The notes beneath the pieces are model-generated. The model was not told the origin of the DNA, searched no databases, and worked only from the letters and a program-made list of their open reading frames with translations. From NCBI GenBank assembly GCA_001784175.1, contig MFPR01000001.1:248001-292560 (forward strand): 44,560 nt of DNA, read 5' to 3'. Each line of letters starts with the position of its first letter. Position 1 is the stretch's first letter. The translations under genes and the position numbers were made by a program. Shown here in pieces: positions 1,649 through 29,352 of this stretch. This DNA is from Candidatus Lindowbacteria bacterium RIFCSPLOWO2_12_FULL_62_27. Lineage in GTDB: Bacteria > Lindowbacteria > 2-12-FULL-62-27.

Positions 1649-1716
1649 CGACAATGGTAATATCACAAACTTTCAAATCTGGCGATTCAAAACCGCCCAA
1701 AGGGGAGACGCATCCT

Positions 1717-3677: not shown

Positions 3678-3681
3678 GATC

Positions 3682-7862: not shown

Positions 7863-8377
7863 AAGTCCGACCCGCCTTCGGGTTCGCGCCGGTCTTCCTG
7901 CGCCATCCGCGCCGCCAGGCCGCTGCCGCGCGGGCGGCGATGGCCGTCGCCGTCGGCGAATTCGGAAGCGTCGTCGATCGGCGCCTGCGGGGACGGTTTT
8001 TTCGGATCCAGCACCGCCCGTATTTTTCTGACGAGGGTGTTCGAATTGAACGGCTTGGCCAGGTAATCCGCCGCGCCCGCCCGGACCGCGGCCATGACGG
8101 TGTCGCGGTCGGCGACGGCCGTCATCATCACGACGGGGATGTGGCGGGTGGTCGGATTGGCATGGAGGCGCCGGCAAACTTCCAACCCGTCCAGGCCGGG
8201 CATTTTGACGTCCATCAGCACCAGCGCCGGATTGAACTCGGCGACGTGTTCAAACGCCTGCTGCCCGTCATCGGCGGAGTCGGCCTCGAACCCGGCCTGG
8301 CTGAGCAACAGCACTGTCGTGATCCGCACCGACATCTCGTCGTCCACCACCAAAATCCGGCAGGGATCGGCCGTCAT
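7859..8377 (-). CDS. Response regulator receiver protein with charged C-terminal tail
   Basis: ILVVDDE, LMDVKMPGLDG, MMTA, YLAKPF; ATGA overlap with the upstream kinase. Confidence 0.9.
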   Translation of the reverse strand: MTADPCRILVVDDEMSVRITTVLLLSQAGFEADSADDGQQAFEHVAEFNPALVLMDVKMPGLDGLEVCRRLHANPTTRHIPVVMMTAVADRDTVMAAVRAGAADYLAKPFNSNTLVRKIRAVLDPKKPSPQAPIDDASEFADGDGHRRPRGSGLAARMAQEDRREPEGGSDL

Positions 8378-10953: not shown

Positions 10954-11068
10954 CACCGCCCCCCCCCACCCCTCAACTACTTGGAGATCAGAAGGTTGGG
11001 ATTTCATGATCATAAATCCAAAATGTGCCAGGGGCGACATATATATATGGAGAGGAGGCTTCCGATTT

Positions 11069-11665
11069 TCATTTCGTGGCCTCCGCAGAGTGTCGCAGGG
11101 CCGGCAGATACTGCGGCAGAACGTCCAGCAACTCCTTCATATCCGTTCCCTTCTGAAAAAACGCGTCGGCGCCGGCCTTGAGAACCGCCTTCTCGTCCTT
11201 GACGTAGCCGGACATGGCGAGAATCTTGATGCCGGAATAGTCCGGCACCGACTTCAGGCGGTAAATGACCTCAATGCCGTCCATTTTCGGCATCAGAAGA
11301 TCGAGGATCAGGACGTCCGGGAGGGCATGTCCGATGTGGAGGAGCGCCTCGACGCCGTTGTCGGCGGTCTGGATCGTCACGTTCGGAAACCGGGCGAGAA
11401 TCCGGCGGGGGAGCGTCTTCAGGATGGATATCTCGTCATCGACGATCAGGATGCGGGGGACGCGGGATTGGAGTTCCGGCGGCACGGGAAAATGCTGGTT
11501 CCGGAGCATCCGGGCGACTTCCTCCCGGCGGAACCGCGCATGCCCGCCGAGGGTCTTGATGGCCGGAATCTTCCCGGTATGGACCCAGTCCGCCACCGTC
11601 ACCCGGTTGACTTTGAACATCCGGCAGATGTCACGCGTGGACAAAAGCTCCGCCTCTTCAGCCAT
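11069..11665 (-). CDS. Excisionase-like HTH (HTH_17) plus receiver-domain regulator
   Basis: LLSTRDICRMFKVNRVTVADWVHTGKIPAIKTLGGHARF then REC (IVDDE, LDLLMP); GGGGAGG RBS. Confidence 0.88.
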   Translation of the reverse strand: MAEEAELLSTRDICRMFKVNRVTVADWVHTGKIPAIKTLGGHARFRREEVARMLRNQHFPVPPELQSRVPRILIVDDEISILKTLPRRILARFPNVTIQTADNGVEALLHIGHALPDVLILDLLMPKMDGIEVIYRLKSVPDYSGIKILAMSGYVKDEKAVLKAGADAFFQKGTDMKELLDVLPQYLPALRHSAEATK

Positions 11666-11758
11666 CGTACCGCCTCCCCGCCACCCTCCAGCGCCGGGGT
11701 TACTATTCTCTAATATCAAACATTTCTAACAATGTCAACTAAAATTTCAATATTGGGG

Positions 11759-14850: not shown

Positions 14851-17359
14851 AATACGCGTAGACAACCTTTCGGCCTGATGAAGACGAGATCAGCCAGTCT
14901 CGCAGGTCTCGGAGGAAACCAAACGGCGGCCGATTCGCGCCGGGCCACCAGCGTCGTATCAAGCACGCCGCCGGATACGCCGCCAAGCCGCCGCTTCCGC
15001 CGCTCGCCGTGAAGAGAAACGCCCGGAACTCGCCCGGCGCCGGCGTGTACACGTACTCGGGCGACGCACGAAGATCCACGACCGCGCCCGAGACGAGATC
15101 CTGCAGCGTCAGCGGAATGTCCGGCGGGATGGATTCGATCCCCTGCGCGCGGATCGTGACCTCGCCCTCGGCGTCGGTGCCGACCTTCAGGCGCCACGAT
15201 CGCGCGTCTGTCGGCGCGCGGTACACGGCGCTGTAATGCTCGCCGGCCTCCTCCCATCCGACCCAGATGCCTGTGGGGGCTGAGGGCGCTTTGGGCGCGC
15301 GCGAGGACCGGCTCCGGACGCCGGCCTCCGTCTGCCGGTTGGCGTCGCCCCGTTGATTGACGACTTCGAACCGCACAGACCAGTCATACGCTCCGGTAGC
15401 CAAAGAGGGCGCGGAAAATCCGGCGCCCGGCGGCGCGAGCGACGCATACGGCGGGACCAGCATGGTGCAATTCTGCGCGGCGTACAGCCACAGGCCCTTG
15501 AACGGCTCCAGTGCGGGGTTCGTCACCGTGGCGCCGGCGAGGCTGGGGCCGTGGATATATCCGGTTTCGGGTTTGTAGTAGTAAACCTCGCCGTCCCGAA
15601 GCAGGCCGTTGGTGATCGCGGCCGAATAGGTGTAGGTCGATCCGGCGGTCGAGACGAATTTCAAATCTTTCACGAGAATTTTAAATTTAAACGGATTGCC
15701 GATCTGGTTCCATCCGGAAAACAGCGCGACCGGCACCGTGTCGTAGCGTGTCGTATCGCTGAGGGCCGAGGTCTGCGCGGTTTCCTGAATGTCCTTCGAC
15801 GTCGAATCGGTCAGTCTGGCCCAGTAGCCGTATCCGGCCGAGAAGGCGGAGGTCAGGGACAGCGCGGAATATTTTTGCAGGATCGGATCCTCCTCGCCCG
15901 AGGAAACCTCGGGGTTCCAGCGAAAGAGCTGGGAGGCGGAGAAGGTGACGCCGAATTCGTTCAAATCGCGGACAAGGCTGTCCGCCGTGTATGTGATTTT
16001 GTGCAGGGGAAACGGGAGAGAAAACAGGGCCCACTGATCGGGCGCCGTCAGAAAGGAGTCGACCGGCGCCTTCACATCCGCAAAATCGACCAGCAGCGTG
16101 AGTTTGCTGTTCTGCAGCGTGATGTACTTGATCGAAAATCTCGCCGCTGCGTCGCTGTTGGGCCGGGAATTCGGCGTCGTATTGTCGGCAAAGGCCGTCT
16201 TGCCTTTCGCGCCGGGCCACGGATGGGACGAGGTGGCGACATAGGACCCGCTGAGCTTGCCGATGTCGGTCCCGTCGGCCTCCTCAAGGTCGAGCCGCCG
16301 GAACTTGACGACCGTCGTGTTGTTGACGTCGTTGTTCGTGATCGTTCCCGTATCCTGGTCAATGTGCCAGATGAGCAGCCCCACGCCCGCGGCCGTGTCG
16401 GGATCGCCGGCGCCCGGGTAGCGGAACTCGAGCAGAAAATATTCGGACGTGTCGCCGGCCGCGGCGAGGATTTTATAGATGCGGGAGTCAGATTCGACCG
16501 GGTTCATCGTGACGTAGGTTGTCGTGTCGATCTGCACGGTATCGCCCCAGTTCAAGTACTCCCGGCTCCACGGGTCCATCCACGTCGGGCTGTCGCCGAG
16601 AATGGGCGCGGCGGCGCCCTGAAAATTTCCGTTGCCGAGGAGTGTCCAGTCGCCATTGCCGCCGTCGGCCGACGTCGTGTTGTAGAGGTCGGGCAGGCCC
16701 AGCTCGTGGCCGAATTCGTGGCAGAACGTGCCGAAAAAGCTGATCGAAAGCGACGAGGTGAGCTTGTAGGTTTCGAGCGGCGTGATGATCGCGTAGCCCA
16801 CGGTCTCGTTGGTCTGCGTGTCCGTGAACGGCATGGACGAAATGTTCTGCACCTTGGTCTGAAGGTCTCCGGTCTTGCTCGTAATGGATTTGCCGGGCCC
16901 AGCATGAAAGAGCGTCACGCTGTGGTACTGGGAAAAGTCGACGTAGGTGTCGACGCGCGCCAGGACTTCCCGCACAAGCAGGATCAGGCCGTTCGTATCG
17001 GTGCGCATCGTGTAACCGGCCTTCGTGTCCGACACGGTCACCATGAGCGTATCGAAGACGGTGTAGGCCAACTGCATTTTTCCGTACGAGATCCGCCGGT
17101 AAAACGTGTCGGCGCGGTCGAGCAGGACGCGCGCGTAGTTGCCGAGCGTGGTCGTATCGGCATGAAACACGCCGGTGTCGGCCGTCAGAGACGTCGACGC
17201 CTGCTGGAACTGCACGAGGAACGCGGCGATCCTGGCGGTCCCGGCGGGCGTGACATTGGCAAACCCGGGCGCGGCCTGAGCGGCGCAGACCGGCCACAGG
17301 CAACAGGCGATCGGCCAGAGCAAGATCGTGCGGAACCCCGTCCTGAAATGCTTCGACAT
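14840..17359 (-). CDS. M6-family (immune inhibitor A-like) secreted metalloprotease with CFI-box-CTERM-like tail
   Basis: Signal peptide; FHAGPG; zinc motif CHEFGHELGLPDLY; PWSREYLNW; EYFLLEFR; GLLIWHID; C-terminal ACLI...LRDLRDWL...GRKVVYAYY. Confidence 0.85.
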   Translation of the reverse strand: MSKHFRTGFRTILLWPIACCLWPVCAAQAAPGFANVTPAGTARIAAFLVQFQQASTSLTADTGVFHADTTTLGNYARVLLDRADTFYRRISYGKMQLAYTVFDTLMVTVSDTKAGYTMRTDTNGLILLVREVLARVDTYVDFSQYHSVTLFHAGPGKSITSKTGDLQTKVQNISSMPFTDTQTNETVGYAIITPLETYKLTSSLSISFFGTFCHEFGHELGLPDLYNTTSADGGNGDWTLLGNGNFQGAAAPILGDSPTWMDPWSREYLNWGDTVQIDTTTYVTMNPVESDSRIYKILAAAGDTSEYFLLEFRYPGAGDPDTAAGVGLLIWHIDQDTGTITNNDVNNTTVVKFRRLDLEEADGTDIGKLSGSYVATSSHPWPGAKGKTAFADNTTPNSRPNSDAAARFSIKYITLQNSKLTLLVDFADVKAPVDSFLTAPDQWALFSLPFPLHKITYTADSLVRDLNEFGVTFSASQLFRWNPEVSSGEEDPILQKYSALSLTSAFSAGYGYWARLTDSTSKDIQETAQTSALSDTTRYDTVPVALFSGWNQIGNPFKFKILVKDLKFVSTAGSTYTYSAAITNGLLRDGEVYYYKPETGYIHGPSLAGATVTNPALEPFKGLWLYAAQNCTMLVPPYASLAPPGAGFSAPSLATGAYDWSVRFEVVNQRGDANRQTEAGVRSRSSRAPKAPSAPTGIWVGWEEAGEHYSAVYRAPTDARSWRLKVGTDAEGEVTIRAQGIESIPPDIPLTLQDLVSGAVVDLRASPEYVYTPAPGEFRAFLFTASGGSGGLAAYPAACLIRRWWPGANRPPFGFLRDLRDWLISSSSGRKVVYAYYEN

Positions 17360-17390
17360 TTGCTTATTGTATATATCGGAAAAAAGCCTC

Positions 17391-17435
17391 AAAAAAACAA
17401 AAAAACCGGAGGCCCGCTTCTTCGCGGACCCCCGG
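17391..17435 (-). terminator. Intrinsic terminator downstream of the Pro-rich repeat gene
   Basis: Minus strand CCGGGGGTCCGC-GAAGAA-GCGGGCCTCCGG followed by TTTTTTTGTTTTTTT. Confidence 0.85.
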
Positions 17436-17467
17436 TCGATGTATCTTGAAGGTACCCTAGTTCAGCC

Positions 17468-20400
17468 TCAAACCGCTTCCATCGGAATCGGATACGGCGG
17501 CGGCGGCGCCAGCGGCGCCACGTAACCGCACCCGTCCGGCTCACAGCCGGCTACAAACGTGTTGGTGCCTTCCGGCGGAATCGTACACTGACTCGTCGCC
17601 GGATCGTAGGTCGTGCCCGGCGGGCAATCGATCATCACGCTGCCCGGAGGCGGCGGCTCGGGAGATCCCGGCGGAGGCGGCGGCGCGTCCGGTGGAGGTG
17701 GCGGCGCCACTTCCATGCCCGGCGGCATCACCGCGTACTGCGACTCGTTCGGAATCGTCACCGTTCCCGAGGTGGCATCGACTTCCGATCCCGGCGGGCA
17801 GGTCCATGCGACGGTTCCGTCCGGATTCGCCTGGACATCCGGCGGCAGGACCGCCGACTGGTACTCGTTCGGAACCGTCATCGAGCCCTCGCCAAACTCC
17901 GTGCCCGGCGGCGCCACAAACGTCACGGCGCCGTCCGGTCCCACCGCCACGTTCGGCGGCAGAACTTGGTACGTCTGGTCCGGCGGGATGACGCAGGTGC
18001 CTGTGGCCGGATCGTACGTCGCGCCCGGAGGGGGCGTAACGGTTACCGATCCGTCCGGATTGCATGAAGCTCCGTCCGGCATCACCATCGCCGAGTACTC
18101 CTGCGGGATCGTGAACGTGTTGGAATTGGCGTCAAACGTGGTGCCTTCCGGCATCGCGCACGTCACCGTGCCGTCCACGGGACTGACCGTGATGTTCGGC
18201 GGCAGTACCGCGCCGGCCTCGGCCGGCGGCAGAACGACCATGGGCGGCGGAGGCGGCGCCCCCGGCGGAACATCCGGCGGAGGCGGAAACTCCGTTCCCG
18301 GCGGCATCGTGCAGGTACACGTGCCGGCGTTCGGATCGAAAGACATCGGCACCGTCGCGTACGTCTCGCCGAAGGTTTCGGGCGGCATGACGCACATGGG
18401 CGGCGGCGGGGGAGGCGGCTCCGCGCCTGGCTCGAGCGGAGGCATGGGCGGCAGAGGCGCCATCTGGACGCCGTCGGCCGGTGTTCCCACATCCACCGCG
18501 ATCGCATACGCGGGCGGCGGCGGGGGCGCTTCTCCCGGAGGCATATCCAGGGGCGGCGGCGGCGGAGGCGGCGCGTAACCCTCGACGTCTCCGGCCGGCA
18601 CCAGTTCCCCGGTCCCGGTGTTCTCGCAAATCATCGCCGTGCCTTCCGGCGGCATCGTGAATTCGCCGGAATTGGCTTCATAGGTACAGCCCGGCGGAAC
18701 TTCGCAGGTGCAGGACCCGTCCGGATTCACCGTGACTTCCGGCGGCATCACCATCGGCGTGTACTCGTTGGGAATGGTGCAGGTCCCGGCGTTCGGATCC
18801 ACCGTCCATGCGGCGTCCCCGGCCGTCGGATAGGCCATCGTGCAGGTACCGGCGTTCGGGTCGAACTGCATGACCGGCGCGATATCGCCCGGCGGGGGCA
18901 ACGGAGCTCCCGGCGGAATCGTCTCGCATCCGGTGATGGCGGCCTGAACTTCCGATGTCGGCGGGATCGCAAACGTCCCGGCGTTCGGATCGATGTTCGT
19001 ACACTGGATCGTCAGCGCGCCGTCCGGCTGAACCGTACAGCCTTCCGGCATCACAGCGGGCGCGCCTTCGGGCGGAACCATGAACGTTCCCGCATTGGGA
19101 TCCATGGTGGTTCCCTCGGGACACGTCATGGTCATCGTCCCATCGGGATTGGCCACCACGCCCGGCGCGGGTTCGGCCATGTAGGGCGGGCAGTCCGGAG
19201 CGGGGCAGGTGATCGTTCCGTCCGGGGGATTCATCGTCGCTTCCGGGGGACACTCGCACGTGACGCTCCCGTTGGCGTTGATGTCCACGTAAGGCGGCAC
19301 ATAATCCGCAGTGGCATCGGGCGGAATCGTCACGGTGCCGGCGGCCGGATCATACTGGGTGCCCTCGGGGGCCACGCAGTTGATCGCGCCGTCCGGCGCA
19401 TAGGTCATATCCGGCGAGGGCAAGAACATCCCGCCGGCGCCGTCGGTCGGCATGGTCATCTGACCGGCGTCCGGATTGTACGTCGTCTCGGGCGGCATCT
19501 CGCAGGTGCAACTGCCGTCCGGATTGACGGTCGCATAATCCGGGCAGACCATCTCGGAGCCTTCCGGCGGCAGCGTGAACTCGCCGGAGTTGGCGTCGAA
19601 GGTGGTTCCTTCCGGACATGCAAGGGTACACGATCCGTCCGGCGCGATGTCGACGCCCGGCGGAACGGTGGGACAATCCTGAGGCGGATAGTTCAACGAT
19701 CCCGCGTTGGGATCATAGACGGTGCCCGGAGGACACTCCACACCGATGTTGCCGTCCGGCATGACGGTCGCGTCGACCGCGGGCGCGAACGTATCGATCG
19801 CGTCCTGCGGCGGCATCGTCACCGTGCCGGCTTCTGGATTGACTTCACACGTCGGCGGCAGCGCGCAGGTCACCGCTCCGTCCGGAGCGACCGCCACGTT
19901 GTCGGGACAAACCATGCTCGCCTCGGCGGGCGGCAGCGTGACGGTCCCGGCATCGGGATTCATCTCGCCGCCCGGAGGCAGGCTACACATGCAGTCGCCG
20001 GTCGGCATCACCTGAACGTCCGGCGGCGTCACTGCGTACGCGCCATCCGGCGGCAGCGTGAACTCGCCGGAGTTGGCCTCGAACGTCGTGCCTTCCGGCA
20101 TCGCAACCGCAACCGACCCGTCCGGCATCGGAGCGCATCCGTCCGGCATACAGGGTGGGGGCGGCGGGGGCGGAACGCCTGCGTCGGCCGGAGGCGGGGG
20201 CGGATATTCCACCGTGCCTCCGTACGGAGCGTCCGGCGGCGCGGGCGCGACTACCGCGTCCGGCGGCAGGGGCGCCACGACGTCACCTGTCGGCGTCACC
20301 GTCGTCTCAGGCGGCAACACCATCGCCGCTTCGCCGGCCGGGAACGTCACCACGGGCGGCGGGGGCGGAACATCGGGCGGCAGATACGGCGGCGGGGGCG

Positions 20401-20872
20401 GGGGTTCCTGGAAGGTACACCCGTCCGGGCAGCTCATGACCACCGAGCCGTCCGGCATCGGGGCGAGGCCTTCCGGCATCACCGCGTCCGCCGATTCGTA
20501 TGGAACCGCCAGCGCTCCCGCGTTGGGGTCATACGTGCAGTCCGGCGGGCATGTCATCACAGCCGCGCCGTCCGCGTTGTACATGCAGTCCATCGGGTAG
20601 GCATCCACCGGCGGCGGGGGCAGTGCGCCCTCCACCATGGTGGCGTCACCGGTCGCGGGAATAAACGTGTCCGCGCCGGCGGTCGCGCCGCTGTCGTACT
20701 GCGTCATGTCGTACGACGTCGACGTGTCGGCCGTCGATTCGGCATCGGCGGTCGTGTCGGTCGGCGCGTCCATCGGGATTGCCCCTCCGAGCGCACCGGG
20801 CGCTACAATCTCGTCCAGCTTCTCGACTCTGACTCCCTTCTTCTTACCTTTACCGGGATCCTTTGGAGCCAA
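17468..20872 (-). CDS. 1134-aa Pro/Cys/Met/acidic tandem-repeat protein with basic N-terminal leader, function unknown
   Basis: TTG start with GAGGAGGT RBS; about 40-aa repeats (CPxGTxYDPxxGxxTxPP...VxPDGxxT); own terminator. Confidence 0.85.
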   Translation of the reverse strand: MAPKDPGKGKKKGVRVEKLDEIVAPGALGGAIPMDAPTDTTADAESTADTSTSYDMTQYDSGATAGADTFIPATGDATMVEGALPPPPVDAYPMDCMYNADGAAVMTCPPDCTYDPNAGALAVPYESADAVMPEGLAPMPDGSVVMSCPDGCTFQEPPPPPPYLPPDVPPPPPVVTFPAGEAAMVLPPETTVTPTGDVVAPLPPDAVVAPAPPDAPYGGTVEYPPPPPADAGVPPPPPPPCMPDGCAPMPDGSVAVAMPEGTTFEANSGEFTLPPDGAYAVTPPDVQVMPTGDCMCSLPPGGEMNPDAGTVTLPPAEASMVCPDNVAVAPDGAVTCALPPTCEVNPEAGTVTMPPQDAIDTFAPAVDATVMPDGNIGVECPPGTVYDPNAGSLNYPPQDCPTVPPGVDIAPDGSCTLACPEGTTFDANSGEFTLPPEGSEMVCPDYATVNPDGSCTCEMPPETTYNPDAGQMTMPTDGAGGMFLPSPDMTYAPDGAINCVAPEGTQYDPAAGTVTIPPDATADYVPPYVDINANGSVTCECPPEATMNPPDGTITCPAPDCPPYMAEPAPGVVANPDGTMTMTCPEGTTMDPNAGTFMVPPEGAPAVMPEGCTVQPDGALTIQCTNIDPNAGTFAIPPTSEVQAAITGCETIPPGAPLPPPGDIAPVMQFDPNAGTCTMAYPTAGDAAWTVDPNAGTCTIPNEYTPMVMPPEVTVNPDGSCTCEVPPGCTYEANSGEFTMPPEGTAMICENTGTGELVPAGDVEGYAPPPPPPPLDMPPGEAPPPPPAYAIAVDVGTPADGVQMAPLPPMPPLEPGAEPPPPPPPMCVMPPETFGETYATVPMSFDPNAGTCTCTMPPGTEFPPPPDVPPGAPPPPPMVVLPPAEAGAVLPPNITVSPVDGTVTCAMPEGTTFDANSNTFTIPQEYSAMVMPDGASCNPDGSVTVTPPPGATYDPATGTCVIPPDQTYQVLPPNVAVGPDGAVTFVAPPGTEFGEGSMTVPNEYQSAVLPPDVQANPDGTVAWTCPPGSEVDATSGTVTIPNESQYAVMPPGMEVAPPPPPDAPPPPPGSPEPPPPGSVMIDCPPGTTYDPATSQCTIPPEGTNTFVAGCEPDGCGYVAPLAPPPPYPIPMEAV

Positions 20873-21058
20873 TCTTCCACCTCCTCAAATGTGATTGTTG
20901 AAGGACATCGAAACCTCGATCGTCCCCTCCCAATCCCCCTTGTTGCCACTCGTATTTTTATCCGCAGTCACGCGGAATATCAATGAATTCGTTGTCAATA
21001 TTGGCACTTCCGGAAAGTAGAGTCTGACACAGAATGCGTGTGTCCAAAGACACAGGCA

Positions 21059-21080
21059 AAATGTGAATAAATTCACTTTT
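21059..21080. promoter_or_regulatory. CRP/FNR-type operator
   Basis: AAATGTGA-ATAAAT-TCACTTTT versus the CRP consensus AAATGTGA-N6-TCACATTT; a Crp/Fnr gene lies in the adjacent operon. Confidence 0.65.
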
Positions 21081-21186
21081 GATTATCCACACATTGTGGA
21101 TTCTGTTGCAACACAAATGTTATCAATTGGTTACAAATCAAGCACGCGCGCCCCGCAACGCCGCCCAGGACACTTGTTGTTTTGTC

Positions 21187-21215
21187 TTGACACATCCCCT
21201 TTAAAATTGGATTAT
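21187..21215 (+). promoter_or_regulatory. Putative sigma70 promoter, possibly giving a leaderless mRNA
   Basis: TTGACA-17 nt-GATTAT ending 8 nt before ATG 21224; no clear Shine-Dalgarno. Confidence 0.45.
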
Positions 21216-21223
21216 ATAGGGTC

Positions 21224-23383
21224 ATGCCCGAAGCAGCCCAGAAACGGCTTGGACCCAAACTTCGAGACGACCTGATCCTGGTCGAGAAGATTCGCCAAGG
21301 CAAGCGGCTCCTTGTCATCAAGGACCCGCTGAAAGTTCAGTACTACCAGTTCGGCGAGCTGGAGATCACGCTCTTTCGCCTGCTGGACGGAAAGACGCCC
21401 CCGCCGAAGATCGTCGAGGAATTCAACAAGACGCACCCGGACGCCGAGATGGCGATGGACGAATTGAAGGAATTTCTCGGGGAGATCGAGAAGATGCACC
21501 TTCTGGAAAAATCGGCCGCCGAACGCAACGCCCTCCTGATTGAACGCCTCAAAGAAGAACGCAAGAACAAATTGATGAGCAAAAAGGGATCGATCCTCTT
21601 CAAGCGCTTCCCCCTGGTCGACCCGAACGACTTTTTCGACCGGATCCATCCGTACATCGCGTGGCTGTGGAGCGTGCCGAGCGTGATTTTCCAGTGTCTG
21701 GTGATTGTGGCGGCGGGGGTGGCCCTGGCGTACAACTGGGACCGGTTCATCGACGGCATCGAGGCGGTGTTTTCGTTCGGCGAGCAGACAGCGTCCAGCT
21801 TTCTGTGGCTGTGGCTGACGATCATCTGCATCATCATTTTTCACGAGCTGGGGCACGGCCTGACGTGCAAGCATTACGGGGGCGAGGTGCATGAGATGGG
21901 GTTTCTCCTGCTGTTTTTCCAGCCGTGTTTTTACGCGAACGTGACGGACGCCTACATGTTTTCGAACAAGAACCACAAGATGTACGTGACGTTCGCGGGC
22001 ATCATCGCGGAATTTTTCGCCGGCGCCATCTTCTGCTTCCTGTGGCTCCTGACCGATCCCTCGACGGGCTTCAACGCCATCTGCTACCAGGCGATGACGG
22101 TCTGCAGCGTCTCGTCGGTCGTGTTCAACCTCAATCCCCTTCTCAAGTACGACGGTTACTACGCCTTTTCCGAATGGGTGGACCTGCCGAACCTCAAGCA
22201 GAACTCGGGGGACGTGCTGGAGAAGTGGCTGCAGAGGATCTACAAGCGGAAGGAGGACATCGAAGAGGACGAATTGACGATGCGGGAGCGGCGGATTTAC
22301 ATCTGGTACGCGATCATCTCCAACCTTTTCATGATCTCGATGCTGACGGGGCTTTTTTTCATGATCAAGGACATCTTCTTCGAGGCGGCGCCGGAACTCG
22401 GGTGCCTCGCGTTTCTCTTTGTCGTCGGGAAACTCCTGAACAGCCAGATTTCCGCGACCGTGAAATTTGTCAAGGATTTCTACCAGTACGAAAGCGCGGC
22501 CTTCGGCGCGATCAAAACGCGGTTCGTGGCGCTGGCCCTCGTCGCGTTTCTGGTGGGGCTCTGTTTTACGGTGCCGTATCCGATCGTGGTGGAGAAACAG
22601 GTGACGATCGAGGCGAGGGACCGGTGGGTGGTGCGCGCGCCGGTGGAGGGATTTCTGGAGGAGATGTACGTGAAGAGCGGAGACGAGGTGAAAAGCGAGC
22701 AGCCCCTGTTTCTGATCGCGAATCCCGAAAAGAGCCGCAAACTGGCGGACCTCGCGGCCGAGGGGCCGAAATACCAGATGCAGCGCGACCAGGCGCTCGC
22801 CACGGACGAAGTCGGCAAGCTGGCCGACATTCAGCTTCGCGAATCCCAGACGGCGGCCGAGCGCAGGGCGATTTTGCGGGACCTTGAAAAAATGAAGACC
22901 TACGCGCCGGCCACCGGCCTCTTGCTGACGACCGGCGTGGAGGAGCTGAAAGGCAAGTACTACAAGGCCGGCGACAAGATTCTGGAAATCGTGTGTCTCC
23001 GCAATCTCTATTCGGTGGTGGAACTCGAAGAGCGCGAGGCGGGGGAGGTGCGGGACCAGAAATCGGCGGCGCGGATGGGCGGCGGGGTGGAGCCGACGAC
23101 GGCGCGAGTGAAAGTGAACGCGATGCCGGGCCGGCTGTTTGAGGCGCGGGTGGGCGAGGTCGATTCGTTTGCGGACACCGGCGGCGTCACGCGGAAGTTC
23201 CGCGCCAAGATCGTCATCCCCAACCCCGACTTCGACTACGGCGTCAACATCCTCGCCTCCGGCCAGATGCTGCGGCCCGGCATGACCGGCATGGCCAAGC
23301 TCGACATCGCGACCGCCACACCCGCCGGCGCCATCGGCCGGTGGCTTGCGGGATTTTTCAGAATGGATTTGTTCATGTACTGA
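21224..23383 (+). CDS. PqqD/RRE-like + site-2 protease (M50) + membrane-fusion-protein fusion
   Basis: N-terminal VIKDP..QYYQF...LLDG...L..F...LLE; FHELGHG (HExxH); NLNPLLKYDGY (NPxxxxDG); several TMs; VRAPVEG lipoyl-like segment and LRPGMTG. Confidence 0.9.
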   Translation: MPEAAQKRLGPKLRDDLILVEKIRQGKRLLVIKDPLKVQYYQFGELEITLFRLLDGKTPPPKIVEEFNKTHPDAEMAMDELKEFLGEIEKMHLLEKSAAERNALLIERLKEERKNKLMSKKGSILFKRFPLVDPNDFFDRIHPYIAWLWSVPSVIFQCLVIVAAGVALAYNWDRFIDGIEAVFSFGEQTASSFLWLWLTIICIIIFHELGHGLTCKHYGGEVHEMGFLLLFFQPCFYANVTDAYMFSNKNHKMYVTFAGIIAEFFAGAIFCFLWLLTDPSTGFNAICYQAMTVCSVSSVVFNLNPLLKYDGYYAFSEWVDLPNLKQNSGDVLEKWLQRIYKRKEDIEEDELTMRERRIYIWYAIISNLFMISMLTGLFFMIKDIFFEAAPELGCLAFLFVVGKLLNSQISATVKFVKDFYQYESAAFGAIKTRFVALALVAFLVGLCFTVPYPIVVEKQVTIEARDRWVVRAPVEGFLEEMYVKSGDEVKSEQPLFLIANPEKSRKLADLAAEGPKYQMQRDQALATDEVGKLADIQLRESQTAAERRAILRDLEKMKTYAPATGLLLTTGVEELKGKYYKAGDKILEIVCLRNLYSVVELEEREAGEVRDQKSAARMGGGVEPTTARVKVNAMPGRLFEARVGEVDSFADTGGVTRKFRAKIVIPNPDFDYGVNILASGQMLRPGMTGMAKLDIATATPAGAIGRWLAGFFRMDLFMY

Positions 23384-23384
23384 G

Positions 23385-24116
23385 ATGCCGCCCCAGAAAA
23401 TCGCGCACCGGTTCGGCCAGAGAAAAACGATGGCGGCCCCGGTTTCCTCCTTTGCGCTCCTCTCCCAGCACCCCATCTTCTCCAAGATCCCGGAAGGGGT
23501 CCGCCGGGAGCTGGTGGCCAGCGGGAGCCTCGTGCGTATACCGCAGTATTCGCTGCTGTTTCACCAGGGCGATGAGGTCACGGCCGCCTATCTCGTCATG
23601 GAGGGCCTCGTCAAAATTTACAGGAACATGGGCGAAGCCGACCGCACACTCGGATTTATCTACAAGTCGGGCATGGTCGGCTTGGACGCGCTCCACGCCA
23701 CGGACGGCCATCCCTACAGCGCCCAGGCGCTGGGCTCGGTCGTCGTCTGCGCCTTTCCCAAGGAGGCGATCCAGTCGATTCTGGCGCGCACGCCCGAGTT
23801 GGGGCCGCTGCTTCTGGCTGAAGTCACGCGCCAGTGGGAGGAGGCGCTGCACGAGCAGGACATCCTGACGCGCCGGAGCACGAACGGCCGGATCGCCGAC
23901 AAGATTTTGCGGCTGGCCGAAAAGTTCGGCCGGGTCGAGGCCGCGGGGACGGTGCTCCTGCTGAAGATCACCCAGCGCGAGCTGGCCTCCATGGCCGGCA
24001 CCAACCGCGAATCGGTCTGCAAGGCGCTCGTGACCTTCAAGCGGGAGGGCTCGATCGACATTCAGAACAAGCTGATCGTGGTCAAGAACAAAACCAAACT
24101 CGCCGCTTGGCCATAA
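23385..24116 (+). CDS. Crp/Fnr family transcriptional regulator
   Basis: LFHQGD, YLVMEGLVKI effector domain; HTH ITQRELASMAGTNRESVCKAL; alternative start ATG 23430. Confidence 0.92.
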   Translation: MPPQKIAHRFGQRKTMAAPVSSFALLSQHPIFSKIPEGVRRELVASGSLVRIPQYSLLFHQGDEVTAAYLVMEGLVKIYRNMGEADRTLGFIYKSGMVGLDALHATDGHPYSAQALGSVVVCAFPKEAIQSILARTPELGPLLLAEVTRQWEEALHEQDILTRRSTNGRIADKILRLAEKFGRVEAAGTVLLLKITQRELASMAGTNRESVCKALVTFKREGSIDIQNKLIVVKNKTKLAAWP

Positions 24117-24141
24117 GCCCGATTCTGCCGATATTATTCAT

Positions 24142-25782
24142 ATGCGGACTGCCTTTTTTCGGACAGCCTGTTTCCTGATCTGTCTGATAACTATTCACCT
24201 CCTCTCCCCCCGCAGGGGGGAGAGGACGAGCGAAGCTCGGGTGAGGGGGGTTGATTGGCGCCGAGCTAAACCGGCCACCCTCACCCCAACCCTCTCCCGC
24301 CTATGGCGGGAGAGGGGAGGGTTCCAAACGCCTCCCGCCCACGCCGAGGGGACGAGGAGACTCTCCATCACCGACGCGCTGAAGCTGGCGCAGGAGCGGA
24401 ACCCCACGTTTTCAAAGGCCAGCCTAACCTACGAATCGTCGCGGCTGACGTACCTCAAGACCCTCCACGGGCTGGGCTGGGTCGAGTCGTTCACGGCGTC
24501 CAGCGACTACAAGCGGGACGAGTCGTTCAGCTATTCGAAATATTTCAACACGACCGGCGAACGCGTCAGCGCGACCCGGAGCCGGACCCTGAGCAACACG
24601 ACGTCCTGGAACCTCAAACGCACGTTCGGGTCGGGCATGGCCACCGACTTTTATTCCAAGCTCACGACCAGCGACGGATCCAGCCGGTACAACGCGTTCA
24701 AGGGCGCGCTCGCGGACGACGCCAGCAGCAGATACAAATACATCACGCAGAAGTTCAATCCCGAAGTCGGCGTGAATCTCACGCTGCCGATCATCGGCAA
24801 GGACAAAAACAGCACCGACTACAGCCGGAAACAGGCGGACGCCTCGTGGGCGCAGGCCGAGATCGATTTTGAGGAGGCCAAAAAAAGCCTCGTGCTGTCC
24901 GTCCGGCAGGGATACTTTGATCTCCTCAAGTACCGGCGGATGGCCGCGCTTCGGAAAGAGGTGCTGGCCGAGGCCGAGGAACGGCTGGAGGTGACCAAGA
25001 AGCGGCTGAGTGTCGGGATGACGACCGAGATGGACGTGTCGCAGGCGGAGCTGACGGTTCTGAGAAACAGGGCGGACCTCGCCGACGCCGTTTTTTCGGA
25101 ACAGCAGGCCCAGAGCCGTTTCAACAGCCTGATCGGCCTGCCGCTGGACGACTACTACGACCTGACCGACGGATTTCCCCCGGAGCCGGTCCGCGAAGTG
25201 ACGATGAAGATGGTGCAAAGCCGTGTGATTTCCGCGAGCGGGGATTTGCGGCGGATGAACAAGGACATCGAAGTTTCGACGATCTCCGTCGAGCAGGCCA
25301 AGTCGAAGATGCGGCCGGCCTTCGCGTTCAAATCGAATCTTGCGCTCGAGGGCGAGCGGCGGGACCTGCCGAGGGTCCTGCGCAATCCCGAGGAGAAATA
25401 TTCCTTCACGCTGACCTACGATTTTCCGTTCGGCGAAAAGGTGACGCAGAAGGCGGACTTGGAGCTGGCTGAGGCGGGCCTGAGCACGAAGGTCCTGGAG
25501 CGGGACGAACTGAATCAGAGCCTGATCCTCGACGCGACCGAGACGTACCAGGAGCTGTTGAAGGTCCAGCGGCGCCTGGCGATCGCGCGGCAGTCGCGGG
25601 AGGTGTCGGAACGGAGTCTTCGGATCGCGCAGGCGAAGTTTGACGAGGGCCGGGGCGAGATCACCGACGTCATCTCCGCCAAAACGTCCCTCGTGAACGC
25701 GCAAGTCGAAGAGCTGAACAACCTCTACAGTCTGGCCGTGGCGACGGCCGAACTCGAGATGCTCACCGGAGAGTCGATCTAG
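24142..25782 (+). CDS. TolC-family outer membrane channel
   Basis: LSITDALKLAQERNP, VRQGYFDL, RLSVGM, KFDEGR OEP motifs; signal peptide split by a repeat. Confidence 0.88.
   Translation: MRTAFFRTACFLICLITIHLLSPRRGERTSEARVRGVDWRRAKPATLTPTLSRLWRERGGFQTPPAHAEGTRRLSITDALKLAQERNPTFSKASLTYESSRLTYLKTLHGLGWVESFTASSDYKRDESFSYSKYFNTTGERVSATRSRTLSNTTSWNLKRTFGSGMATDFYSKLTTSDGSSRYNAFKGALADDASSRYKYITQKFNPEVGVNLTLPIIGKDKNSTDYSRKQADASWAQAEIDFEEAKKSLVLSVRQGYFDLLKYRRMAALRKEVLAEAEERLEVTKKRLSVGMTTEMDVSQAELTVLRNRADLADAVFSEQQAQSRFNSLIGLPLDDYYDLTDGFPPEPVREVTMKMVQSRVISASGDLRRMNKDIEVSTISVEQAKSKMRPAFAFKSNLALEGERRDLPRVLRNPEEKYSFTLTYDFPFGEKVTQKADLELAEAGLSTKVLERDELNQSLILDATETYQELLKVQRRLAIARQSREVSERSLRIAQAKFDEGRGEITDVISAKTSLVNAQVEELNNLYSLAVATAELEMLTGESI
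24192..24317 (+). repeat. REP-like palindromic doublet, in frame inside the TolC signal peptide
   Basis: Near-identical to 13172..13289 but 9 nt longer, carrying a CGAGCGAAGCTCG mini-hairpin. Confidence 0.95.
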
Positions 25783-25783
25783 G

Positions 25784-28189
25784 ATGGCGGCCGACACGCA
25801 GACGGCGAACCTAGATGAGCTGCAGGCCAAGCTCGAGCGGCTGACGCTCCTTTACGAAATCAACCGCGATTTCCACTCCACGCAGGACCTCGCGGAACTC
25901 ATGCCGAAAGTCTTCGAGGACGTCCTCAAGGCGATGAACTGCGAGGGCGGGTCGCTGTGGATGTGGGATGACGATGCGAAGATGATCACCTGCGAAAACG
26001 CGTTCGGGCCGGGCAGCGAAAACGTCAAGGGCTTGAAGCTTCCGAAGGGCACCGGGATTGTGGGCTGGGTGATCAACATGAAGAAGCCGACGATCGTGAA
26101 GGACGCGACGGCCGACAAGCGATTTGCGGGCACGACGGACCAGAAGACGGGCTTTGTCACGAAATCGATGATCTGCGTGCCGCTCCTGACGCAGGCCGGG
26201 GTCCTGGGCGCGATCCAGGTCCTCAACAAGAAGGGCGACACCGGCCAGTTCAACGACGAGGACCTCGAGCTTTGCAAGGTCATGGCCGAAAACGCGGCCG
26301 GCGCCATCGTCAACGCGCGGGCCTACGAGTCGGAAAAGACGGCGCGGGAGCGCATCCAGGTGTTCAACGAGTTCAACAAGGCCCAGAGCACCACGCTCGA
26401 TTTGGACAAGCTGCTCGACATCATCCTCAAGCGCGTCGTCACCATCCTCGACGCCGTCGCCGGCAGCATCTGGCTCCGGCAGGGCGGAGACCTCCTCGCC
26501 AAGGTCGCGGTCGGGCCGACCGCCGGGAAGCTGGTCGGCGCCAAAGTTGGGGTCGGCACGGGGATCGTCGGGAGCGTCGTCCAGAAAAAAGCGCCGGTGA
26601 TCGTGGAAGACACCTCGAAATCGGAATTGTTTTCCGGCAAGGTCGACGATGCCACCGGATTCAAGACCAAGTCCCTCATTACCGTGCCCCTCATCCACCA
26701 GGACGAGGCGATCGGCGCCATCCAGATCATCAACAAGAAAAAGGACGACGACTGGTTCACCAAGGACGACATGGACCTTCTGTCGAGTCTCGCGGGCCTG
26801 TCGACCAGCGCCATCAAGAACGCGACGCTGTACGAGGTCGAGCGCAAGGCGAAGGACCTGTCGATTTTGCTGGACATCTCGAAAGAGGTCTCGTCGAACC
26901 TCGACATGGACAGCGTCCTTGTGACGGTCGTGAACCTCACCAACCAGGTGGTGCCCTACGAGCGGGCGGCGATGTTCGTGAAGAACGAAAACAAATACGA
27001 TTTGCGCGCGGTGTCGGGCGCCGCCAAGATCGACAAGGCCGACCCGGCGATCATGGCGCTCGACAACGCGGCCGACGCGATCGACAAGGACCTGTACATC
27101 GCCGACGCGGAGAAGTATCTGGCGGAGGGCGGGGGGATTGCGGCGGTCAAGGACTATCTGAAACAGGCCGGCATCGCGTCGTTTTACGCGCGGGTCCTGG
27201 CCGACGACCAGGGACCGCTGGGCATGATGACGATGGAGAGCAAGAACAAGGATTTCGTCCAGCCAGCGCAGATGGAGATGCTGACGATCCTGGCCAACCA
27301 GATCACCGTGTCGATCCGCAACGCCGAGCTGTACAAATCGGTCCCGATGTTTTCGGGCTTTGGCAAGGGCGCGACCCTCAAGAAGGTGCTGGTGGGCGGC
27401 GCGATCGCGCTGGGGGTTCTGGCGGGGCTCGGGGCGCTTTTGTGGTTTCCGAAAGTCGAGCACCGGCTCGGCGGGCAGGTCGACATCGAGCCGATCGTGC
27501 GCAACAAAATTTACGCGAAGGAAAGCGGGATTCTTGACAAGGTCCACTTCCGGGAGGGCGACACCATCAAGGTCGGAGACCTTTTTGCCGAACTTTCCCA
27601 ACAGGACATGGAGCAGGAGAAACTGAAGATCCAGACGAAACGCGAGATCGCCCGCCAGTCGTATCTGCGGTCGGTGGGCCTGTCGAACATGGCGGAGGCA
27701 CGGATGAAGGAGGCCGAGATCGCGCAGGCCGACCGCGAGATGTCGAACCTGTCGAACAAGATGGAGAACACGCGGATCATCTCGCCGCACGAGGGCCAGG
27801 TCCTGACGGCCGACCTGCCGCAGAAGGTCGGGGAAAACATCAGCCGGGGCGCGGTCGTCGGCGATGTCGTCGATCTGTCGAAACTTCAGGTCAAGTTCGG
27901 CGTGCCGCAGGAGCAGATCCGGTACGTCGCGGCGGGGCAGGAGATCCGGTTCAAGGTCTCCTCCTACCCGACGCGGACCTACACGGTCAAGATCGAGCGC
28001 ATCGGCATGGAAGGCTCGACCCAGGAGGACAAGACGATCTACAACGTCTACGCGACCATTGAGAACGCCGACCGGACGCTCAAGGCGGGCATGTCGGGCC
28101 GCGGGAAGATTCTGGCGGGCAAACAGCGCCCGTTCCAACTCCTGATGGAGGAACCGGTCCATTGGATGCGGATGAACTGGCAGTGGTGA
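25784..28189 (+). CDS. Triple-GAF-domain membrane fusion protein (HlyD-like)
   Basis: GAF repeats (GIVGWV...TKSMICVPL...IQVLNK..F..ED), TM VLVGGAIALGVLAGLGALLWF, then MFP (IISPHEG, LKAGMSG). Confidence 0.88.
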   Translation: MAADTQTANLDELQAKLERLTLLYEINRDFHSTQDLAELMPKVFEDVLKAMNCEGGSLWMWDDDAKMITCENAFGPGSENVKGLKLPKGTGIVGWVINMKKPTIVKDATADKRFAGTTDQKTGFVTKSMICVPLLTQAGVLGAIQVLNKKGDTGQFNDEDLELCKVMAENAAGAIVNARAYESEKTARERIQVFNEFNKAQSTTLDLDKLLDIILKRVVTILDAVAGSIWLRQGGDLLAKVAVGPTAGKLVGAKVGVGTGIVGSVVQKKAPVIVEDTSKSELFSGKVDDATGFKTKSLITVPLIHQDEAIGAIQIINKKKDDDWFTKDDMDLLSSLAGLSTSAIKNATLYEVERKAKDLSILLDISKEVSSNLDMDSVLVTVVNLTNQVVPYERAAMFVKNENKYDLRAVSGAAKIDKADPAIMALDNAADAIDKDLYIADAEKYLAEGGGIAAVKDYLKQAGIASFYARVLADDQGPLGMMTMESKNKDFVQPAQMEMLTILANQITVSIRNAELYKSVPMFSGFGKGATLKKVLVGGAIALGVLAGLGALLWFPKVEHRLGGQVDIEPIVRNKIYAKESGILDKVHFREGDTIKVGDLFAELSQQDMEQEKLKIQTKREIARQSYLRSVGLSNMAEARMKEAEIAQADREMSNLSNKMENTRIISPHEGQVLTADLPQKVGENISRGAVVGDVVDLSKLQVKFGVPQEQIRYVAAGQEIRFKVSSYPTRTYTVKIERIGMEGSTQEDKTIYNVYATIENADRTLKAGMSGRGKILAGKQRPFQLLMEEPVHWMRMNWQW

Positions 28190-29181
28190 CCAACTACCTG
28201 CCACCCTCACCCCGACCCTCTCCCGCCGGAGGCGGGAGAGGGGGGAGAGCCGGCGTGTTTCGCACGGTCGTGCCCGGACTCTTGTTCGCTGCCCTTTACC
28301 CATCATTACCCGTTACCCGGTGCCAGGCGGAGGTCTACACGAACGGTCTGACGATGATCTACCGGGAGGTTTCGGTGAGCCCGAGGTCCTCGGGCGTGAT
28401 CGAGAAGCTCTACGTGCAGGAGGGCCAGTGGGTGTCGGAAGGCGACGCGCTGGGGGAATTGGACGCGACGAAGGAAAAAATGGATTTGCTGTTGACGGAC
28501 ATGGAGCTTGAGGAGCTGCAGCTTTCTCTGGAAAAAATGAAGCTGCCCCTGCGGCCGAAAGAGATCGAGAAAATGGAGATTGACCTGAAAAAGACCCAGC
28601 TCGCCGAGGACAAGACCAAAACGGAGCTTGAGCGCACCAAGCGCCTGTATGATCAGAAGGCGGTATCGGACAAGGATGTCGCGGACGCCAAAAACGCGGC
28701 CGAGGCCGCCGCGCTCGCCACCAAGGCGCAGAAACTCTCGCTGGAACTCGCCAAGGAGGGGCCCCGCAAGGAGGAGATCATGCTTCACGAAATGAAAATC
28801 GCGCAGAAACTCCACGCGCAGGACCAGAAAAAGCTCGCGCTCGAAAAAATGACCGTCCTCTCCTCCGCCGCCGGCGTGATCTCGAAACTCTACTACGCCG
28901 CCGGCGAAAACGCGGCCGCCGGCCAGCCCTTCTGCGACGTCCTCAACACCGACTCGCTCTACGTCGAACTCAATCTGCCCGTGTCGGAGATCAACCGGAT
29001 CACGGTCGACCAAAAGGCGACCGTGACGGTTCCGTCGGTCACCTCAAAATCCCATCCGGGCCGCGTCGTGTTCATCAGCCCCACCGTCGATCCGGCCAGC
29101 CGGACGTTCAAAATCCGCATCGAAATCGCCAACCCGCAGCGCGCCCTCAAACCGGGGCTCTTCGCCACCGTTTCGATTTAG
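28186..29181 (+). CDS. HlyD/RND-type periplasmic adaptor (MFP)
   Basis: VSPRSSGVIEKLYVQEG, coiled coil, VFISPTVDPASRTF, LKPGLFA; start GTG 28186 (GTGA overlap) or GTG 28255. Confidence 0.88.
   Translation: MTNYLPPSPRPSPAGGGRGGRAGVFRTVVPGLLFAALYPSLPVTRCQAEVYTNGLTMIYREVSVSPRSSGVIEKLYVQEGQWVSEGDALGELDATKEKMDLLLTDMELEELQLSLEKMKLPLRPKEIEKMEIDLKKTQLAEDKTKTELERTKRLYDQKAVSDKDVADAKNAAEAAALATKAQKLSLELAKEGPRKEEIMLHEMKIAQKLHAQDQKKLALEKMTVLSSAAGVISKLYYAAGENAAAGQPFCDVLNTDSLYVELNLPVSEINRITVDQKATVTVPSVTSKSHPGRVVFISPTVDPASRTFKIRIEIANPQRALKPGLFATVSI
28200..28244 (+). repeat. Single REP-like palindrome at the MFP 5' end
   Basis: CCACCCTCACCCCGACCCTCTCCCGCC-GGA-GGCGGGAGAGGG. Confidence 0.9.
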
Positions 29182-29273: not shown

Positions 29274-29303
29274 AAAAACAGGGGGACGCTTGGAGCGTCC
29301 CCC
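29274..29303 (-). terminator. Intrinsic terminator of the amt-glnK-porin operon
   Basis: Perfect 10-bp stem GGGGGACGCT/AGCGTCCCCC followed by TGTTTTT on the minus strand. Confidence 0.8.
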
Positions 29304-29352
29304 CTTGGTTCTCGATTCTGAACCTTACCGGTAAAAGGGCGAAACTACCTGC

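Follow-up and report, generated by a model that had tools for sequence, protein, structure and literature searches.

A candidate leader-guided, TolC-linked export system beside a giant repeat protein almost free of lysine and arginine in Candidatus Lindowbacteria

A 44,560-nucleotide stretch of the genome of Candidatus Lindowbacteria bacterium RIFCSPLOWO2_12_FULL_62_27 (assembly GCA_001784175.1, contig MFPR01000001.1, positions 248,001 to 292,560; hereafter the window, whose own numbering is used throughout) carries a five-gene operon on the + strand (21224-29181) and, divergent from it, the gene for a 1134-residue repeat protein, rep1134. Three of the operon's products are membrane-fusion proteins (MFPs), or periplasmic adaptors, and one of these is fused to an M50 site-2 protease and to a leader-binding domain of the kind found in the biosynthesis of peptides that are made on ribosomes and modified post-translationally (RiPPs), the RiPP recognition element (RRE). 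We lean towards reading the region as one unit, a cargo gene together with a dedicated leader-guided, TolC-linked machine for its export and maturation, in which the fusion, the adaptors and the TolC-like channel are probably the export and processing route of the adjoining repeat protein. The core of this module is already in print, in a form that includes the SecA_DEAD protein and without a function (Kamneva, Poudel and Ward, PLoS One 2015; PMC4452313).

The first-pass annotation of this DNA had described a single operon for the RRE + M50 + MFP fusion, a Crp/Fnr regulator, a TolC-like channel, an MFP with three GAF domains (GAF-MFP) and a plain MFP, and Pfam and NCBIfam scans of the window's open reading frames (ORFs) agree with it. 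Its further statement that the operon lacks ABC and RND genes was borne out by the Pfam scan, which found neither family in any of the 28 window ORFs that it covered. Where it had placed a convergent terminator, a bidirectional terminator-like hairpin is present (Table 1).

The fusion protein has 719 residues. Pfam places Peptidase_M50 in it at 28.2 bits (cut-off 27.2) together with HlyD_D23 (E 6.4e-16) and HlyD_3, while in NCBIfam it matches NF041824, the family of the daptide intramembrane metalloprotease, over residues 12-415 (E 6.9e-53) and NF058609, the YydH/LiaK epipeptide protease, over residues 186-320 (50.9 bits, below the cut-off of 225). The M50 core comprises six to seven hydrophobic helices and holds an HExxH motif at 207-211 and the sequence N302xN304P305...D310G311, in which D310 is the Asp of NxxPxxxxDG. 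Because none of the 22 aligned homologues deviates at the HExxH residues H207, E208 and H211 or at the aspartate D310, the protease looks active, and the M50 part noted at first pass thus retains its active site. In an AlphaFold2 model of the whole protein (mean pLDDT 79.7) an N-terminal domain of three strands and three helices is followed by a helical membrane core, with the HExxH helix at 190-217 and the last membrane helix at 429-449, and by an adaptor part with a two-helix hairpin (501-527 and 530-555). A Foldseek search with the complete 719-residue model returned adaptors alone, led by MacA (3fpp, E 1.4e-15) and followed by MexA and AcrA, and a profile of the fusion alignment run against PDB sequences gave adaptors (MacA, EmrA) and a weak match to the site-2 protease MjS2P (3b4r, E 0.014). 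The RRE was not found by that sequence profile against PDB sequences, nor did Pfam PqqD match the fusion at E <= 0.01.

Because the whole-model search had given adaptor proteins only, the N-terminal domain was folded alone (AlphaFold2, residues 1-110, 16-row alignment, pLDDT 78.5). All 12 of the best PDB matches to this domain model found by Foldseek are RiPP leader-binding domains. The best is TbiB1 with its bound leader (5v1v, TM 0.62/0.76, E 2e-3), and others are PqqD (5sxy), TruD, the lasso-peptide protein B1 (6jx3), ThcOx, LynD and CteB, with TM up to 0.63/0.81. The domain is thereby supported as an RRE at the level of predicted fold, in keeping with the 'RRE-like' label that it had first been given. 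A complex prediction from alignments, pairing residues 1-100 with a 50-residue leader, scored 0.01 against a mark of 0.32; it was run with no controls and counts neither way.

The divergent ORF had been singled out at first pass as a repeat protein with a short charged leader and no Sec signal. Judged from its sequence and relatives it is a real gene, and rep1134 has a Lys-rich N-terminus and no transmembrane or signal-like segment (maximum 19-residue hydropathy 1.14). The protein is 22% Pro, contains 45 Cys and is built from a repeat unit of ~40 residues (type NPDGSxTCxxPPGTxYDPNAGTxTxPP). Neither Pfam nor NCBIfam has a family that matches it above threshold, with no NCBIfam match at E <= 0.01 and no RTX or HemolysinCabind match in Pfam at E <= 0.01. 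A database search gave 11 relatives, from Bdellovibrionota and Oligoflexia, all of them named 'hypothetical protein'. Counterparts with 51% and 68% identity occupy the same divergent position in two same-family genomes (G007 and G008), and the whole arrangement of five-gene operon plus leader is kept in two of three such genomes.

The first 25 residues of rep1134 form the putative leader, a Lys-rich run that leads into KLDEIVAP with GALGG just after it; the leader region reads ...VEKLDEIVAPGALGG. In an alignment of nine cargo N-termini, M1, K18, L19, A24, P25, G29 and G30 are invariant in 9/9, and the rep1134 leader is near-identical in G007 and G008 whereas the next ~40 residues diverge. An NCBIfam scan of the first 60 residues of six cargos found no family at E <= 10; a match to the 'LEPR-XLL' N-terminal domain, supposing that the release scanned holds such a model, came up neither there nor for rep1134 as a whole. 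More generally, the N-termini of cassette-linked repeat proteins show a basic run followed by KKLE[ED]RIAP[GSA]M.GG, and giant proteins with a basic KKLE[ED]RIAP..GG leader adjoin the cassette in 13 loci from four phyla. By a profile made from these N-termini, the same leader stands on giant proteins that rep1134 does not find by tblastn, in Thalassomonas (L017, 1478 residues), SAR324 (L013) and metagenome-assembled genomes (MAGs) of Alteromonadaceae (L020) and Psychromonadaceae (L022), as well as on an ORF of a Chlamydiales MAG that is cut after 141 residues (L012). The C-termini of the cargos are not conserved between cargo families.

These comparisons come from a survey of one genome per species, in which at least 571 relatives of the fusion were confirmed among 600 pattern matches and the best 80 loci were kept. 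Among 8000 candidates scored, 756 database proteins match the fusion at E <= 0.001; they are ~700 residues long, align over their full length and span Planctomycetota, Bdellovibrionota, Oligoflexia, Magnetococcales, Acidobacteriota and Alteromonadaceae. The core of three MFPs recurs in at least 571 species genomes, and by tblastn with the window proteins the GAF-MFP adjoins the M50-MFP in 67 of the 80 loci. Homologues of rep1134 occur in nine of the 80, all within the 10 closest among the loci listed (L001-L005, L007-L010); the remaining one of these ten, L006, is a 5.3-kb contig. The linkage of such clusters with a large leader-bearing protein, which the first-pass annotation had made a touchstone of its proposal, is thus found in nine of the ten closest loci, and elsewhere the same leader sits on unrelated giants and on peptides. 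Across the nine loci, Pfam annotation of 92 ORFs gives a recurring set of M50-MFP, small MFP, GAF-MFP, one or two outer-membrane efflux proteins (OEPs) and a repeat protein of 831-2079 residues, with no conserved ATPase among the 92. The gene order can be tight: in L008 (Planctomycetota) the M50-MFP and the small MFP flank the repeat-protein gene, and in L017 (Thalassomonas) cargo, GAF-MFP, M50-MFP, MFP and OEP follow one another in that order on one strand. OEP genes are adjacent in 17 of the 80 loci; among the 13 loci with giant cargos, 12 have one.

A second feature shared by the cargos is their charge. All seven Lys/Arg of rep1134 fall within its first 18 residues, so that the 1109 residues of the mature protein include neither (0 K, 0 R) and carry a net charge of -138. 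Among the 4107 genome frames of at least 300 residues, that of rep1134 is the poorest in K+R, at 0.7% where the median is 14.7%. After a leader that itself carries 6-14 K+R, K and R are nearly missing from all 15 giant cargos examined, the other 14 having 0-17 K+R in 582-2051 residues and net charges of -94 to -303. The window and Thalassomonas cargos have a mature count of 0, those of L008, L020, G007 and G008 a count of 1. Because it is shared by cargos that rep1134 does not find, the purge belongs to the system and not to one protein family. Four very long frames elsewhere in the genome also have low K+R contents of 4.1-4.9% (C19 1-21600, C34 2-15673, C18 3-8021 and C15 3-8960, encoding 7200, 5224, 2673 and 2986 residues); they run to the contig start, leaving their N-termini unassembled, and C19 is one open frame end to end.

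Small leader-bearing ORFs take the place of the giants in other lineages, and a combined profile, made mostly from acidobacterial peptides, finds a leader ORF in 33 of the 80 loci. In Acidobacteriota a sequence pattern marks 27 small ORFs in 15 loci, 1-4 in tandem, encoding peptides of ~35-45 residues with a basic leader ..KKGKTLGxKKLEKK.PL and a hypervariable tail of 5-15 residues; the ORFs lie about 200-3300 bases downstream of the M50-MFP gene on the opposite strand, in convergent orientation. Acidobacterial peptide loci are L018, L024, L026-L029, L033, L034, L038, L040, L044, L049, L059, L062, L065, L067 and L070. These small ORFs look like precursor peptides for the same machine, and their products are possibly secreted signals or RiPP-like compounds. 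Four further leader-peptide ORFs in three loci of Gemmatimonadota (L071 7764-8072, L073 6801-6956 and two copies in L077 6254-6802) encode peptides of ~50 residues that end 4-10 residues after the sequence ...ELxVxELE[ED]RI[AT]P; these ORFs lie immediately upstream of the GAF-MFP gene. Neither the combined profile (at E <= 1) nor a regular expression for the acidobacterial peptides (basic run, KKLEKK.[PT]L, then a variable tail of 5-15 residues; 6.9 million six-frame residues searched, 0 matches) found anything in the window's genome.

A parallel from RiPP biosynthesis bears on where the leader might be cut. Daptide precursors carry a leader motif ELExMEAP with Pro at -1, and the daptide RRE is fused to an intramembrane site-2 protease (bioRxiv 10.1101/2023.03.08.531785, as far as the available text goes). 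The shared L-[ED]-x-x-x-A-P pattern is meaningful because the daptide RRE-protease is the very module matched by the window's fusion, and by this analogy it suggests that the leader is cleaved after AP.

Several observations weigh against the reading of the region as a leader-guided export unit. Searched at E up to 100, the window's genome yields no match to a profile made from 17 leaders of other lineages. Over the first 60 residues of rep1134 this profile scores 0.7 bits, and 100 of 2000 shuffles score as high; because this match is not significant, the leader assignment rests on position, on the homology of the remaining protein and on local conservation, and the rep1134 leader may be a diverged variant. 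By these profiles a leader ORF is absent from 47 of the 80 loci, short contigs possibly included. The fusion reaches 180.1 bits with NF041824, short of the curated cut-off of 300, and the E-values of the RRE fold matches are modest (2e-3 at best, none below 1e-3), although the match list is uniform. Nor is the charge rule universal, because the small acidobacterial peptides have Lys/Arg in their tails.

Other counterarguments concern the motor. In other lineages the M50-fused, GAF-fused and plain HlyD proteins travel with a secondary SecA_DEAD ATPase, and because the same three proteins accompany it there a motor may be needed here too. The available text of that study reports no ABC transporter in the module, proposes SecA_DEAD as its ATPase and the M50 protein as its pore, and calls its role 'completely unknown' (PMC4452313). 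The description of the window system as 'ATPase-less' in the first-pass annotation therefore stands for the operon, where there is no ATPase gene and no second SecA gene, and for the genome, where there is no SecA paralogue, while for the module at large it has to yield to the lineages with SecA_DEAD. The genome, 94% complete, has one SecA_DEAD match, a housekeeping frame of 1037 residues on another contig, and no second M50-MFP; tblastn with this SecA as the query found no SecA-like gene in the 80 loci. Among five other carrier genomes three have one SecA and one has a single fragmented SecA, while Thalassomonas (G004) shows a weak second SecA_DEAD match of 27 bits. With one SecA in the genome and none in the 80 loci, the window's clade holds a SecA-less form of the module.

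It is also possible that a pump partner is encoded elsewhere in the genome. The RRE-M50 part would then trim the leader and do nothing more, and the adaptors and TolC would serve an unlinked energised pump (ABC/MacB, RND, MFS or housekeeping Sec), an explanation that we think unlikely. Characterised TolC-dependent systems all have an energised inner-membrane transporter, at least as the available text of PMC8277102 presents them, and the genome offers 34 ABC matches and 8 RND genes outside the operon as well as a complete MacAB-TolC-type pump 19 kb to the left of the cassette. That pump straddles the left window edge (window 1-1666 and C1:245390-248434) and consists of an OEP (398-1666, - strand), a MacA-like MFP of 333 residues and a MacB of 664 residues (ABC_tran + MacB_PCD + FtsX). 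In 10 of the 80 loci, seven of them in one acidobacterial subclade (L044, L045, L047, L050-L052, L055), a permease of the MacB/FtsX type occurs near the cassette. In that subclade the gene, at about 3250-6100 on the - strand, is divergent from the GAF-MFP gene, directly upstream of it, and encodes a MacB_PCD + FtsX permease of ~830 residues without an ATPase domain, which could be a lineage-specific partner. The addition of SecA_DEAD in other lineages points the same way. Set against this, the nearby MacB already has its own MacA-like adaptor and OEP, and three dedicated adaptors exceed any known pump's use. A search within 10 kb of the 80 loci with 20 nucleotide-binding-domain (NBD) and 7 RND queries from this genome found an ABC or RND gene in 26 loci and none in 54, including all of L001-L018, much as the first-pass annotation had expected of homologous clusters, and cargo-plus-cassette operons that lack a pump occur in distant phyla. 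Three of the 26 pump-positive loci were annotated (L026, L044, L062), and their ABC genes, considered as the missing pump of the acidobacterial systems, were set aside as PstSCAB/PhoU or binding-protein-dependent importers.

A further alternative holds that the cassette is a signalling or envelope-tethering device, in which regulated intramembrane proteolysis would be linked to a scaffold across the periplasm, and that the repeat protein is a cytoplasmic substrate from which a signalling fragment is released or leaves by another route. Such proteolysis is the best-known role of site-2 proteases, GAF and Crp/cNMP domains have sensory functions, and the tiny neighbour peptides of Acidobacteriota and Gemmatimonadota could be signals. 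We nevertheless judge this decidedly improbable: MFP and OEP proteins are export components, the 45 Cys and 22% Pro of the repeats are typical of extracellular proteins and the cargo has no other export signal, an N-terminal leader paired with an RRE suits substrate delivery better than the cleavage of a membrane-anchored anti-sigma factor, and Pfam finds no sigma or anti-sigma gene in the operon. That the 1134-residue ORF is a chance frame in GC-rich repetitive DNA and its link to the operon fortuitous is close to refuted, for although long spurious ORFs are frequent on both strands at the local 62-68% G+C, no Pfam or NCBIfam family vouches for this one and the sequencing-run matches list no RNA run, its protein is conserved in place in the two related genomes, tblastn reaches 3e-62 against cassette-linked genes of low-GC Bdellovibrionota whose frames are unambiguous, the gene has its own terminator, and the extreme K/R purge is confined to the rep1134 frame.

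The first-pass proposal, in which the fusion would replace the ABC component, bind and cleave the leader and pass the substrate through a heteromeric MFP-TolC channel, is supported in part. For the preferred reading, that of a dedicated export and maturation unit, the gene content, the predicted folds, the intact catalytic residues and the conserved linkage of the machine with leader-bearing cargo have been shown, and we infer leader binding, cleavage, route and stoichiometry as follows. The 1134-residue protein would be made in the cytoplasm with its basic leader of ~25 residues, and the cytoplasmic RRE of the fusion would bind this leader at its KL[DE]xxxAP core, in the manner of RREs in RiPP pathways. 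The unfolded, polyanionic, K/R-free chain would then thread the inner membrane at a complex of the M50 core with the three adaptors' membrane anchors and pass through the adaptor tunnel into the TolC-like duct, and the site-2 protease would cut the leader away, probably directly behind AP. A small ligand may control both activity and expression, by way of the GAF domains and the Crp/Fnr regulator. As for energy, we favour, as a guess, the membrane potential (negative inside) as the force that moves the charge-purged chain outwards, and extracellular folding and disulfide formation among the 45 Cys could act as a ratchet. An electrophoretic drive would fit because the mature cargo has no positive charge and the basic leader would stay in the cytoplasm. 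Taken to its limit, this would be a third way of powering TolC, in which the adaptor complex holds the leader, the membrane potential electrophoreses the K/R-purged giant and the protease cuts, all with no ATPase, for 5-15-residue peptides in Acidobacteriota as for 2000-residue proteins in Bdellovibrionota; in this full form we consider the idea speculative and unlikely.

How does the system compare with what has been described? To our knowledge, no TolC-linked exporter has been characterised that lacks an ABC, RND or MFS motor. Type I secretion (HlyB-HlyD-TolC; LapBCE; SiiCDF) likewise joins an MFP to a TolC-type duct and exports giant, acidic, repetitive cargos that lack a Sec signal and are encoded beside the machine. 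It differs in that the window system has no ABC transporter and three distinct adaptors, one of them fused to a metalloprotease, and in that type I cargos use an uncleaved C-terminal signal and usually RTX repeats, whereas here there is a cleavable-looking N-terminal leader and no RTX repeat. Peptidase-containing ABC transporters (PCATs), which act on double-glycine leaders, resemble it in that one inner-membrane protein recognises and presumably cleaves the leader during MFP/TolC export, and in the GG pair after the leader core, but they combine a C39 cysteine protease with ABC domains whereas the window fusion has an M50 metalloprotease, an RRE and no ABC domains. The RRE-fused site-2 proteases of RiPP pathways (NF041824, NF058609) share the order of N-terminal RRE and HExxH intramembrane protease, and genes beside them, like those here, encode the N-terminal L-[ED]-x-x-x-A-P motif (compare ELExMEAP of the daptides, in the available text); the window fusion scores below both family cut-offs and is joined to a periplasmic adaptor. 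Daptide clusters, as far as that text shows, encode an aminotransferase, a dehydrogenase, a methyltransferase and an ABC exporter, none of which is among the window ORFs scanned, and their substrates are peptides of ~40 residues whereas the candidate substrate here has 1134.

The nearest relative is the module of Kamneva and co-workers (PMC4452313), which is alike in its three adaptors, occasional OEP and absence of an ABC transporter, and whose authors also proposed the M50 protein as the passage through the membrane. It is defined by a truncated second SecA, which is missing from the window's operon, genome and the 80 loci, and its available text mentions no cargo, RRE or leader. A literature search did not find the cargo link, the RRE fold, the daptide-like leader, the K/R purge or the SecA-less form; the supplements of PMC4452313, which this search did not cover, may show giant genes. 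A preprint on giant genes (10.1101/2023.11.21.568195) was considered as a prior description and, in its available text, concerns other proteins. We place the window system, as a candidate tripartite exporter that depends on TolC, with the Kamneva type of module, in a SecA-less form, and there is a real chance that its transport principle is new.

Table 1. Features of the system in the window
Feature	Position	Strand	Basis or remark
Terminator-like hairpin, 14 pairs + T-run, directly after the cargo gene	17404..17437	-	
Candidate cargo, 1134-residue repeat protein (rep1134)	17468..20872	-	translation, composition, homologues
Putative leader (residues 1-25 of rep1134)	20798..20872	-	alignment
Divergent control region	20873..21223	.	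promoter-like sites +21187-21215, -21111-21082, -20983-20954; consensus matches only
CRP-type half-palindrome TGTGA-N6-TCAC	21062..21076	+	candidate site for the operon's own Crp/Fnr regulator
RRE + M50 (site-2 protease) + MFP fusion, 719 residues	21224..23383	+	Pfam, NCBIfam, alignment, models
Predicted RRE (PqqD-like) leader-binding domain, residues ~11-96, cytoplasmic side	21254..21511	+	predicted fold, Foldseek
Intramembrane M50 / site-2 protease core, residues ~134-450	21623..22573	+	PF02163, NF041824, NF058609
Periplasmic adaptor (MFP) part, residues ~452-711	22577..23356	+	Foldseek, profile vs PDB
Crp/Fnr regulator, cNMP_binding + HTH_Crp_2	23385..24116 (ORF open from 23346)	+	Pfam, NCBIfam
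TolC-like outer-membrane factor, 546-residue ORF	24142..25782	+	Pfam OEP E 1.4e-38; TIGR01844
3xGAF + transmembrane segment + MFP (HlyD) protein, 801 residues	25784..28189	+	Pfam, NCBIfam
Plain MFP, HlyD + biotin-lipoyl	28255..29181 (ORF open from 28162)	+	Pfam, NCBIfam
Terminator-like hairpin, bidirectional, closing the operon	29281..29304	.	

The operon's genes are closely packed. For the Crp/Fnr regulator the ATG at 23385, 1 nt past the stop of the fusion gene, is a likelier start than the ORF opening, and the ATG of the GAF-MFP is likewise 1 nt past the TolC stop; both junctions suggest translational coupling. The plain MFP more likely starts at the GTG at 28255, past a repeat element, and its G008 orthologue aligns from residue 44. 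This element, REP-like and ~55-135 nt long, has four copies in the window (13172-13289, 14715-14834, 24191-24324 and 28196-28250), in both orientations, with two GC-rich hairpins, CCTCTCCCGCC-n4-GGCGGGAGAGG and CCTCTCCCCCC-n4-GGGGGGAGAGG. The copies are intergenic except that at 24191-24324, which lies in frame within the TolC ORF after a signal-like N-terminus and encodes residues ~17-61. As the only in-frame starts are 24142 and 24241, the repeat copy adds ~45 residues that are missing from the G008 orthologue, which aligns from residue 66. In the control region between the operon and the cargo gene, TGTGA-N6-TCAC, a half-palindrome of the CRP type, has its sole match in the 44.6-kb window (chance expectation 0.09; at least one match in 8 of 100 shuffles). 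Together with the GAF domains and the Crp/Fnr protein, this single site points to ligand-controlled expression and gating.

Beyond the cargo gene's terminator, at 11759-17392 on the - strand, are genes for an M6-like metalloprotease (850 residues, signal-like N-terminus), an alginate-export-like beta-barrel (520 residues) and a 515-residue protein of no known family. The M6 protease and the porin-like gene were considered as parts of the system and set aside, given the strong intervening terminator and their absence from the Bdellovibrionota loci; the M6 gene nonetheless follows the cargo gene in G007. A signalling block occupies 2058-11719 (- strand), with two CHASE-PAS hybrid histidine kinases (854 and 888 residues), a PAS hybrid kinase, a FapA-like protein and an HTH_17 response regulator. 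The organism's lineage seems to have been sampled sparsely, because the reference set holds only three same-family genomes; 27 other relatives are labelled 'same domain'. A search of sequencing runs found near-identical DNA in 11 groundwater or soil metagenome runs and listed no RNA run; seven of the metagenome runs hold at least half of the sampled words, and two of these may be the source.

The cassette, which occurs in hundreds of species, here has no motor in its locus and has a RiPP-type leader reader and an intramembrane protease at the place of the pump. If it exports its neighbour, it would supply a secretion route for a large class of giant surface proteins that are now orphans, and RiPP-style leader recognition would stretch from 40-residue peptides to proteins of more than 2000 residues. 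The near-total absence of Lys and Arg from the cargos would then be a testable handle on transport energetics, and the short leader could serve as a secretion tag. Cultured carriers exist in Thalassomonas sp. (L017) and Algibacillus agarilyticus (L016), which makes the study of this system at the bench feasible.

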